Below, in pieces: positions 29,395 to 32,300 of a DNA stretch of 64,000 bases; position 1 is the first letter of the stretch; every line of letters begins with the position of its first letter. Origin of the DNA: Candidatus Paceibacter sp. Lineage in GTDB: Bacteria > Patescibacteriota > Minisyncoccia > UBA9983. The position numbers and the translations under genes were made by a program. Below the pieces are notes generated by a model. That model was not told the origin of the DNA. It saw nothing but the letters and a program-made list of their open reading frames with translations, and did no database searches. The DNA lies in NCBI GenBank assembly GCA_013360865.1, contig JABWAS010000002.1:30159-94158 (forward strand), written 5' to 3'.

Positions 29395-32300
29395 AAAAGA
29401 CAATTAGTACTTCTCGGCTGAACACATTGCTGTGTTTACACCTAAAGCCTATCAAGGTCGTAATCTTCAACCTGTCTATGATTCCTAATCTTGGGGTGGG
29501 TTTCTCGCTTAGATGCTTTCAGCGATTATCCCTTCCCGACATAGCTACCCAGCGGTGCTCCTGGCGGAACAGCTGGCACACCAGAGGTCGGTCCACTCTG
29601 ATCCTCTCGTACAGAGAGCGGATCCCCTCAAGAATCTAACGCCTGCAGCAGATAGGAGACCAACCTGTCTCACGACGGTTTGAACCCAGCTCACGTAACC
29701 TTTTAATTGGCGAACAGCCAAACCCTTGGGACCTTCTCCAGCCCCAGGATAGGTTGAGCCGACATCGAGGTGCCGAACAGTGCCGTCGATATGAACTCTT
29801 GGGCACTACCAGCCTGTTATCCCCGGAGTAGCTTTTATCCGTTAATCTTTGGCCGCGTCTAATGCGGACCAGCGGTTCACTATGCTCTGCTTTCGCATCT
29901 GCTCGACCTGTCCGTCTCGCAGTTAAGCCGGCTTTTGCCATTACGCTACCAGCGCGGTTTCCATCCGCGCCTAGCCGACCTTAGTAGACCCCTCCGTTAC
30001 CTTTTAGGAGGGATTCGCCCCAAACAAACTGCCCACCAGGAACTGTCTCCTCGCGTTTTTGCCGCGAAGGTTAGATTTTAAGTTTTTAAAGAGTGGTATT
30101 TCACTGGCGGCTCCATGCCGCCCAAAAGCGGCACTTCAAAGCCTCCCACCTATGCTACGCATCAAAAACCTAAAGCCAATACCAAGTTGCAGTAAAGCTT
30201 CCGGGGTCTTTTCGTCTAGCTGCAGGTAACCGGCATCTTCACCGGTATTGTATTTTCACCGAGCAATTTCCCGAGACAGTTCTCCGGTCGTTACGCTATT
30301 CGTGCGCGTCAGAACTTCATGTTTTACCCCCTATTTTCATAAGGGCATAGACTATATCTTCATCTGAATAGATTTTAATATCGCTTCTCTCTATTCAGCG
30401 TCGGCGTATTATAGCGTTGCTTTTTCACAATTTCATTATACTTCGCATAGCTATCTTTGTCACCACTATCCAGCAGTGACTCCAGTCGTTACGGGACCAC
30501 TCCGCTCCGCTAGTTGGCGGATGGCGGAATGCCTCCAATCTTTTGGATTGGGTTCCCACGGTATTATCCTGCCTTCATCGTTCTAACCTTGATATTAGAA
30601 CTCCAACGAGGACTTCACCGTTATTAGCCGATTTTTTTCCGATATCGCTATCGGAACAGGCAATTCAATTACCTGACAAGGAATTTCGCTACCTTAGGAC
30701 CGTTATAGTTACGGCCGACATTCACGAGGGCTTAATGCACGGCAGCCGCACCATTGCTGATGCGACCAGCGCATTTTGACCTTCTCGCATTGGTCAAGCG
30801 TCGCCCCCTATACATCCTCTTGCGAGTTCGCAGGGAGCTGTGTTTTAGGTAAACAGTCGCCAGAGAAACTTTCGCTGCGCCCGATACTACAGCTCTACAA
30901 ACGATAGATACATGAAAGACAAACTTTTTTTCAAAATTTGGCTATTTCAAAATAAATATCGCGCGTAAAGTTGTAGTATCGGGAAGCCTTATCCCGAAGT
31001 TACGGCTGCTTTTTTGCCTAGTTCCTTGGGAAACTCTCACTCGTTCGCCTTAGTCTACTCGACTCACCCACCTGTGTCGGTTTTCGGTACGGTTCCCACG
31101 CGTTTAAGTTTAGAGATTTTTCTTGGAAGCCTGCTCCGTTTTATCCCCACGGGCGAACCCGTAAGTCTTCGCTTCGCTTGGAGATTACCTTGCGGCCCGC
31201 TTCCGGATTTTCCTGGAAGCCCCCCTCACGACCCGAACGCAAATCCAATAATGCGCAAAACATACTAGACTCCGTCCTCCCATCACAACGCGCGGAAGTC
31301 ACGGAATATTAACCGTGTGTCCATCGCCTGCGGCTTTCGCCATCGGCTTAGGCCCGACTAACCCTTGATCGATTAACGTTGTCAAGGAAACCTTAGGTTT
31401 GCGGCGTTCCGGTATTTCACCGGAATTGTGGTTACTTGTGCCAACATTCTTACTTCGCAACGCTCCATACCGCCTCGCGGCGTGTACTTCACTGCGGATG
31501 CGAATACTCTCCTACCGAGCAAGCAAAGCTTGCTCCCTCACCTTCGGTATTTCGCTTAGCCCCGATTATTTGCGGCGCGGAACCTCTTGACGAGTGAGCT
31601 GTTACGCACTCTTTAAAGGATGGCTGCTTCTAAGCCAACCTCCTCGCTGTCAGAGAAATTCCACTTCCTTAAGCGCACTTAGCGAAAATTTAGGGACCTT
31701 AGATTGAGATTCGGGCTGTTCCCCTTTTGACCAGTGAAGCTTAGCCCCCACGGTCTGACTGCCCGTCAATGACTTCCGGTATTCGGAGTTTGATTGATTT
31801 GCCGAGATTTCTCCCTGTGCGAATCATCCAGTGCTCTACCCCCGGAAGGTAAAACGGACGCTAGCCCTAAAGCTATTTCGGAGAGAACCAGCTATTACCA
31901 AGTTCGATGAGCTTTTCACTCCATACCACAGATCATCCCATAGTTTTGCACGGCTAATGGGTTCGGGCCTCCTCCCGGCTTTCGCCGGAATTCACCCTGT
32001 CCGTGGTAAGATCACCTGGCTTCGGGTCTAATTTGTACTACGAACGCCCTTTTAAGACTCGCTTTCGCTGCGCCTTCGCCGCTTATAACGGCTTAAGCAA
32101 GCAGCACAAATTAACTCGTTGGCTCATTCTTCAATAGGCACACCGTCGCGCGCGCAGCGCGCGAAATTTAAACATTTAAATATTTAAATATCCGCGTGCT
32201 GCGCACGCTCCGATTCCTTGTAGACATATGGTTTCAGGTTCTATTTCATCGCCCTCACCGGGCTGCTTTTCACCTTTCCCTCGCGGTACTTGTTCACTAT

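Follow-up and report, generated by a model that had tools for sequence, protein, structure and literature searches.

The 23S rRNA gene of a Candidatus Paceibacterota bacterium, contained in the 64-kb stretch of DNA analyzed here (referred to below as the window), is interrupted by a 353-nt group I intron, inserted directly after the position equivalent to U1951 of Escherichia coli 23S rRNA (site L1951). The interpretation that best accounts for the observations, to which we assign a probability of about 0.83, is that the intron undergoes standard group I splicing and has descended, by loss of an endonuclease gene, from a mobile L1951 intron. The intron is real but ordinary, being a member of a class already catalogued in bacteria of the candidate phyla radiation (CPR). 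An initial annotation, made from the letters of the window, had proposed a group I intron without a homing endonuclease open reading frame (ORF) in a CPR host; NCBI names the window proteins Candidatus Pacebacteria or Paceibacterota bacterium, and the Rfam Intron_gpI match, a leave-one-out nhmmer profile, and a covarying structure agree on the group I identity. The gene and the intron are located as follows.

29385..32928, minus strand: bacterial 23S rRNA gene, complete (Rfam LSU_rRNA_bacteria, 2415.8 bits, model positions 1-2925)
30318..30670, minus strand: group I intron, 353 nt, after E. coli U1951 (MAFFT, Rfam Intron_gpI, leave-one-out nhmmer)

The host gene is 3544 nt in length, counting the intron and several short expansions, and is 69% identical to E. 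coli rrlH in a MAFFT alignment. In this global alignment the 353 nt form one large insertion, at exactly 30318..30670 on the minus strand and exactly after E. coli position 1951, whereas the Rfam large subunit alignment opens a 355-nt insert at model positions 1979/1980. On the RNA strand the 5' exon ends in ...GAAAUUCCUUGUCAGGU (in longer context, ...GCGAAAUUCCUUGUCAGGU), its final U being at 30671; the intron starts with AAUUGAAUUGCCUG and ends in ...GUAAAACAUG, with its last base, a G, at 30318, and the 3' exon resumes with AAGUUCUGACGCGCACGAA. Because AA begins both the intron and the 3' exon, the alignment alone would permit the boundary to slide by up to 2 nt; the boundaries were set at 30318..30670 because group I rules require a U before the 5' splice site and a G as the last intron base. 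The initial annotation gave no strand for the insert, but its coordinates, length, preceding U, and final G prove exact to the base in the alignment with rrlH. The exon context that it described, GGUAGCGAAAUUCCUUGUC(G/A)GGU followed across the insert by AAGUUC, was also right, but its numbering of about 1917 was not, since this context equals E. coli 1930-1951 and 1952-1957, so that the site is L1951. The helix 69 segment GGCCGUAACUAUAACGGUC, which contains position 1917, is uninterrupted in the window 23S, and L1917 lies 34 nt upstream of the actual break. In published lists the two sites are kept apart, and introns and endonucleases are given for each of them (PMC1995217, Table 1; PMC11270868). 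A second group I intron at L1917 or elsewhere in the 23S gene was ruled out by an E-value scan of the window, in which a single Intron_gpI match was found.

Group I structure and proposed splicing

The Rfam Intron_gpI model (RF00028) matches positions 30328..30680 of the minus strand over its full length (model 1-253) with a score of 45.6 bits, corresponding to E = 1.6e-10 when a slice of 501 nt is searched and 2e-8 for all 64 kb of the window; a covariance-model match, the absence of which was to have spoken against a group I intron according to the initial annotation, therefore exists. Relatives of the intron were collected in two scans. A metagenome scan with an 18-nt word from P5/P4 returned 104 loci, about 35 of which hold the same intron family at the same site, and a scan of species-representative genomes with the pattern GCGAAATTCCTTGTCRGGTNNH, intended for any L1951 insertion, yielded about 21 L1951 introns at least among the matches listed. 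From the metagenome scan and the listed genome-scan matches, a family set of 26 distinct complete introns was assembled; the closest relatives among the matches listed are 72-76% identical to the window intron. An nhmmer profile built from 20 related L1951 introns, from which the window copy was excluded, gives a single match in the window, with an envelope of 30318-30670 on the minus strand, model positions 2-302 of 307, a score of 210.6 bits, and E = 3.2e-64; the identity to these 20 relatives is 60-76%, in keeping with membership of the L1951 lineage. An assembly artifact was ruled out, the insert being a complete, correctly placed member of a family found in many independent assemblies.

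Folded alone, the 353 nt have a free energy of −116.3 kcal/mol, as compared with −81.2 ± 5.3 kcal/mol for shuffled sequences (z = −6.68), and the single-sequence minimum free energy (MFE) fold holds P2, P3, P4, P5/P5a/P5b, P6a/P6b, P7.1, P7.2, P8, and P9. The parts of the intron are listed below in the order of the RNA strand, apart from the exon segment for P10 and the two strands of P3, which stand with their partners.

30657..30675, minus strand: P1, a helix between the internal guide sequence AUUGCCUG (30664..30657) and the end of the 5' exon, CAGGU, together with intron AAU (30675..30668)
30312..30316, minus strand: 3' exon AGUUC, able to form P10 with GAAUU of the P1 loop region (intron, 30666..30662)
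30638..30655, minus strand: P2 hairpin, 7 bp, with a GCGA (GNRA) tetraloop at 30645..30648; in the MFE fold
30627..30631, minus strand: P3 5' strand, UCGGC, with its partner at 30401..30405
30401..30405, minus strand: P3 3' strand, GCCGA, from pair counting; in the MFE fold
30558..30621, minus strand: P4, formed by ACGGUG and UACCGU, which are the classical P/Q elements; inside it lie P5, P5a, and P5b (30567..30612)
30493..30557, minus strand: P6 domain, a three-way junction of P6, P6a, and P6b (−30.1 kcal/mol, z = −4.24)
30484..30489, minus strand: P7 5' strand, R element ...GUAACGACU, with the pair A191-U331, a bulged C, and then G-C
30411..30480, minus strand: P7.1 (30459..30480) and P7.2 (30411..30454), extra hairpins between P7 and P3'; in the MFE fold
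30364..30398, minus strand: P8 hairpin, 9 bp with a 17-nt loop (35 nt in all), 6 of 7 tested pairs compensatory
30349..30363, minus strand: J8/7 and P7 3' strand, S element GAUGAAGAUAUAGUC, invariant in 21 of 21 sequences and unique in the window
30328..30345, minus strand: P9 hairpin, 7 bp, with a GAAA tetraloop at 30335..30338; in the Rfam alignment and the MFE fold
30318, minus strand: terminal guanosine (omega-G), the last intron base, a G ending 21 of 21 aligned members

The comparative evidence comes from an alignment (A1) of 21 sequences, 467 columns in length, from which the long P8 inserts were excised and in which 9 nt of the 5' exon and 8 nt of the 3' exon were retained. Unguided RNAalifold predicted 74 pairs in this alignment, 45 of them compensatory, and recovered P1, P2, P4, P5, P5b, P6, P7.1, P7.2, P8, and P9. 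The full group I structure, including the P3/P7 pseudoknot, was then written by hand and its pairs were counted over the 21 sequences: in the 75 pairs, 92.2% of cells are standard-paired, against 36.8-42.8% when the 3' partners are slid by 1-3 columns, two-sided changes occur in 39 pairs (11-21 in the slid controls), and the covariation score is 0.418 (0.058-0.116 in the slid controls). None of 500 shuffles attains any of the observed structure measures. The other 20 sequences share 122 columns with a conservation of 90% or more; the window copy agrees with the family at 119 of these and departs from it at three, and one of the departures, a C-to-U change opposite G, preserves the pair. The conserved core P3-P9 with the P3/P7 pseudoknot is present in it, RNAalifold and the MFE fold agreeing for the nested helices, and the folding check of P1-P9 that the initial annotation had proposed recovers nested helices in both predictions and the full structure in the covariation test.

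In P1, the splice-site U30671 forms a wobble pair with G30661, and this U.G is invariant in all 21 sequences, whereas the next-but-two pair from the wobble, between exon position 1948 and the guide, covaries (GC in 11 sequences, AU in 9, UA in 1); the guide sequence tracks natural exon variation. Toward the 3' splice site, a P10 of 5 bp could form, as judged from base complementarity, and would align the site; in most relatives only the GAA/UUC part of it can do so. Every pair of P2 (7 of 7) has compensatory changes, with 99.3% of cells paired, and in P3, which forms the pseudoknot with P7, two of five pairs covary (UA:10/CG:7 and CG:10/UA:9). P5b is compensatory at 5 of 5 pairs, and the P5 region folds with z = −3.6. 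The P7 A-U pair is swapped to U-A within the family (12:9), and its G-C, A-U, C-G, and U-A pairs are invariant in 21 of 21 sequences; by analogy, the G-C after the bulged C is placed as the guanosine-binding pair. A single copy of the S element AAGAUAUAGUC, the S-like element that had been noticed at the outset, is found in the window, at 30350..30360 on the minus strand (AAGATATAGTC), against 0 expected by chance (100 shuffles). The G-C beside a bulged base in P7, the R/S and P/Q elements, and a terminal guanosine at 30318, directly before AAGUUC, are all present. P9 covaries in the family in the RNAalifold register, but the register taken from the window sequence fits the family poorly (44% paired), MAFFT having shifted the window copy by 1-2 columns.

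Compensatory changes are also seen in 6 of 7 pairs of P7.1 and 3 of 5 of P7.2. The layout of the intron is that of subgroup IA, and it is regarded as subgroup IA-like because these two hairpins, which are specific to subgroup IA, sit between P7 and P3'. P7.1/P7.2 are among the features used for assigning group I introns to classes (PMC3984707), and a Bacillus intron drawn with them is said to share subgroup IA characteristics (PMC2248736). The P6 domain differs from that of the aligned relatives, in which it is apparently an unbranched hairpin and mostly shorter, the longest (locus L181) being of similar length; the base of P6 covaries across the family, and the extra arm of the window copy is a gap in the relatives.

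In standard group I chemistry the precursor rRNA would fold into P1-P9, and pairing of the guide sequence with the end of the 5' exon would bring the U.G wobble to the 5' splice site. The attack after U1951 would come from a free guanosine held at the conserved P7 G-C pair, after which the terminal G of the intron would take the same P7 pocket while P10 holds the 3' exon, and exon joining would restore the canonical domain IV sequence ...GUCAGGU-AAGUUCUGAC.... This two-step splicing is favored because an intact, covarying core and an exon-tracking guide make sense only if P1 serves in cleavage.

It should be recognized that some points weigh against the interpretation given here. We infer splicing by analogy and from conservation of the core. 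The Rfam score lies 4.4 bits below the curated gathering score of 50, so that a default Rfam scan misses the intron; other family members with a reported match score 31.7-55.6 bits (seven loci scanned), L181, the nearest relative without an ORF, passing the threshold with 55.6 bits, and the near-threshold score is for this reason viewed as a property of the family as opposed to a weakness of the window copy. The shuffle control ignores the relatedness of the sequences, but the slid-partner control corrects for it and agrees. P4, in which ACGGUG/UACCGU is invariant in the 21 sequences, and P5 show no changes or one-sided changes only and carry no covariation information. Finally, the codons that resemble the ends of an endonuclease gene, discussed below, overlap P3', the P8 stem, and J8/7, which are constrained as RNA, and part of this resemblance therefore need not mean coding descent.

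The main rival explanation is that the group I fold is present but unspliced, the insert remaining in mature 23S rRNA as an expansion. A precedent is the L1931 intron of Simkania negevensis, reported to be unspliced (Everett et al. 1999, as cited in PMC11270868), and the Rfam score under the gathering threshold could be read in the same sense. However, the core is intact at its near-invariant positions, with the U.G wobble, the P7 G-C, and the terminal G in place, and the covariation of the guide with exon position 1948 would be without purpose unless P1 forms for cleavage. Transcripts are reported to lack the CPR rRNA insertions (PMC11270868), and 353 extra nucleotides in the highly conserved domain IV would probably be harmful. 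The covarying core and the exon-tracking guide make an unspliced insertion unlikely.

A classical bacterial intervening sequence (IVS), in which a hairpin is cut by RNase III without rejoining to leave a fragmented 23S rRNA, is still less credible and is given very little weight. Hairpin-type insertions do occur elsewhere in the window 23S, and short non-intron insertions are common in CPR 23S genes (PMC11270868), but the L1951 insert is a multi-helix pseudoknotted fold with covariation and not one long, extended hairpin, and both the group I model and the L1951 intron family align with it from end to end. Its location also differs: in a CPR survey, short insertions at 23IS2 and 23IS4 were equated with RNase III-cleaved IVS, whereas group I introns were found at 23IS6-14, toward the 3' part of the gene, the region that includes L1951 (PMC11270868). 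The most prominent hairpin-type insertion of the window 23S lies in domain I (about 105-145 nt, 32480..32624 on the minus strand, after E. coli position ~269); it folds into one long, near-perfect, AU-rich hairpin (−61.8 kcal/mol, z = −7.3), has no Rfam match, and looks like an IVS-type or expansion hairpin, not an intron. Shorter insertions relative to E. coli 23S are present on the minus strand at 32666..32703 (38 nt after position 228), 32154..32198 (45 nt after position 548), and 30905..30970 (21 + 36 nt around positions 1719-1728).

Probable loss of the endonuclease gene

The insert contains no endonuclease-sized ORF, as the initial annotation had stated: the longest start-to-stop ORF on the sense strand encodes 44 residues (30425..30559), and the longest overlapping ORF on either strand, of 78 residues on the plus strand (30543..30779), extends into the exon and is not a plausible endonuclease. 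The single-motif LAGLIDADG gene of the mobile form is absent, and the window copy belongs to the ribozyme lineage but is not a mobile intron-endonuclease unit. In contrast, 17 or more of the 26 distinct complete introns in the family measure ~716-838 nt and have an ORF in P8, where 454-479 nt separate the two strands. The products are of 152-235 residues with one LAGLIDADG motif, ...YISGYVDGEGCF...; two of these ORFs were scanned and match Pfam LAGLIDADG_1 (PF00961) with E about 6e-24, and for one scanned ORF the closest structures in the PDB are meganucleases of the I-OnuI/I-SmaMI type. In locus L073, the ORF starts in the P7.2 3' strand, crosses P3' and P8, and ends at a UAG stop codon inside the S element.

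The P8 of the window copy keeps short remnants of both ends of such an ORF, in different frames. The upstream-frame remnant is YNTPTLNREKRY, followed by a stop (compare YNTPALKRELSQYLSGYVDG in L165), and the remnant in the stop frame is ...AILKSIQMKI, also followed by a stop (compare DILKSIEMKI in L181 and MILENLKMKI in L073, both ending likewise). Family members without an ORF are L181, L127/L171/L204, L163, and L162, and their deletion end points differ: L162 keeps ...EYISGY and the window copy ...REKRY, whereas L181 has an in-frame fusion. Because the ORF-less members end at different points, repeated deletion of the endonuclease gene within the family is suggested, and the view that the window copy is a deletion derivative of an ORF-bearing intron is well supported, though not proven. 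The ancestor would have been a mobile L1951 intron with a single-motif LAGLIDADG homing endonuclease encoded in the P8 loop, the gene of which was lost through internal deletion; without the gene, the intron would be unable to home alone and would persist as a harmless, vertically inherited passenger.

The loss of the gene raises the question of whether the RNA is self-sufficient. Some LAGLIDADG proteins act as maturases, and splicing of the window intron might require a protein helper, either a maturase or a host factor, which may once have been the lost LAGLIDADG protein itself; the unusual extra arm of the P6 domain could be cited in the same direction. However, the several independent ORF-less relatives listed above indicate that loss of the protein is tolerated, and the GNRA tetraloops of L2 and L9 together with P7.1/P7.2 would serve as stabilizers made of RNA only, as in self-sufficient introns, so that dependence on a helper, with the core intact, is considered improbable. 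It is also distinctly unlikely that the endonuclease-less intron is kept by selection rather than tolerated, for example as a candidate brake or checkpoint on large-subunit maturation in a slow-growing CPR cell with a reduced genome. If this were so, the branched, lineage-specific P6 arm would be a binding platform, and a core that has outlasted the mobility gene would reflect function; the observations that bear on it are the intact core and the several ORF-less copies. Standard splicing of a passenger intron that has lost its endonuclease gene is the preferred reading over both.

Relatives and gene context

Several of the 26 relatives are from metagenome-assembled genomes (MAGs) labeled Patescibacteria, and the labels of MAGs with L1951 introns, among the matches listed, include Patescibacteria/Parcubacteria, Berkelbacteria, Peribacteria, Peregrinibacteria, Margulisbacteria, Thermoleophilia, Acidimicrobiia, and others. 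The CPR 23S genes of loci L029, L086, and L111 are uninterrupted at L1951, and the presence of the intron is therefore sporadic. It should be noted that the genome-scan pattern was swamped by 23S genes with a natural A for G at position 1954 (AAATTC); this variant, GGUAAAUUC, is present in Paenibacillus, Cohnella, phytoplasmas, Mycoplasma/Ureaplasma, and others (L011, L015, L017, and at least about 70 other loci). Some intron-bearing 23S genes depart from the consensus in the first bases of the 3' exon (positions 1952 or 1954), which reads GAGUUC in L151, L164, and L190 and AAAUUC in L173, L191, L205, and L213; such bases would enter P10 and the endonuclease target site, and the variants could reflect co-conversion or escape.

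A contig labeled "Candidatus Bathyarchaeia archaeon" (L127, DATEAU010000060.1, 4725 nt) carries a bacterial 23S-5S region with an L1951 intron that is 82% identical to that of the window over the first 116 nt, and an intron nearly identical to it, of 304-305 nt, is found again in L171 and L204 from metagenomes; the contig was probably mis-binned and belongs to a CPR bacterium. The window 23S has one group I intron, whereas related CPR 23S genes have two or three each: L181 has them at 1058..1268, 1989..2328, and 2757..2940 and L115 at 146..441 and 491..701, and in L172 the L1951 intron is followed downstream by two or more additional group I-like insertions, and a long ORF is present in at least one of these.

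The 23S gene of the window is followed by a 5S rRNA gene.

29019..29125: 5S rRNA gene, after the 23S gene

No tRNA was found between the 23S and 5S genes (29019..32928), and an Rfam scan found no 16S gene anywhere in the 64-kb window, including the 31 kb upstream of the 23S gene. Because no 16S gene lies within the 31 kb covered upstream, the rRNA operon appears to be unlinked. A 978-residue ORF without a Pfam match (22779..25715, minus strand) adjoins RlmN-like and RodA genes and is found at the same position in several Logan assemblies from this organism (L003, L004, L006). One of these, L003, which is from the same or a very close organism, has a 23S_rRNA_IVP gene (PF05635, 7122..7496) a few kilobases from the rRNA region, which is lacking from the matching part of the assembly to which the window belongs (L002); the family name derives from proteins encoded in 23S intervening sequences.

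Known L1951 introns and significance

Insertions have been reported in 82% of CPR 23S genes, 45% of the insertions being group I by Rfam, and the LAGLIDADG_1 genes of CPR bacteria cluster at 23S positions 1917, 1931, and 1952 (PMC11270868). Group I introns are described as being conserved throughout the Patescibacteria in rRNA and tRNA genes, and those in tRNA genes self-splice in vitro (PMC13011429). The closest described counterparts of the window intron are the CPR "1952" introns (site 23IS8; Tsurumaki et al. 2024, PMC11270868), which are in the same clade and gene and at the same point, insertion after 1951 being equivalent to insertion before 1952. They were likewise found by sub-threshold matches to Rfam Intron_gpI and are associated with LAGLIDADG_1, and the 26 relatives collected here belong with them. 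The window copy differs from this class in having no ORF and in the branched three-way junction of P6. The window assembly is not named in one supplementary file of PMC11270868, which is not evidence of its absence from that survey.

Outside the CPR, the Coxiella burnetii intron Cbu.L1951 is 720 nt in length and encodes a 157-residue LAGLIDADG endonuclease (PMC1995217, Table 1). Compared by published description only, it occupies the same 23S site as the window intron and belongs to a LAGLIDADG-associated lineage, but it retains the endonuclease gene that is missing from the window copy. One of the two Coxiella introns reportedly lacks the canonical terminal G, going by the title of Raghavan et al. 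2007, unlike the window intron, which ends in G. The L1951 introns of Actinomycetota (Thermoleophilia L012/L038/L040, Actinomycetes L025, and Acidimicrobiia L091/L097) are also at the same site, and most of them start identically or nearly so (AATTGAATTGCCCG against AATTGAATTGCCTG), whereas L097 starts with ATTGATTTGCCCG. Over P3-P4, a stretch of 27 nt in L012, L038, and L040 is 89% identical to the window intron, and L025 is 73% identical over 62 nt, but the overall similarity is low, and the P5/P4 core word recovered none of these Actinomycetota introns.

A comparable pair of ORF-less and ORF-bearing introns is found in the group IA introns of Bacillus nrdF (PMC2248736), and a cyclic model of the gain, degeneration, and loss of homing endonucleases is discussed in PMC1995217. 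The family of the window intron likewise mixes copies with a full gene and copies with a deleted gene at one site, with no essential difference from that cycle.

For annotation, the consequence of an intron that escapes a default Rfam scan is that the length of the 23S gene in this MAG would be overstated by about 350 nt; primers or probes across position 1951 would fail. In nomenclature, L1951 is the designation to be used, since catalogues treat it and L1917 as distinct sites. Current understanding is unchanged by this intron; on a single ribozyme scaffold, it and its relatives show the endonuclease gene at full length, in part deleted, and wholly deleted, a small, clean series that exemplifies, in CPR bacteria, the loss phase already known from the homing cycle.

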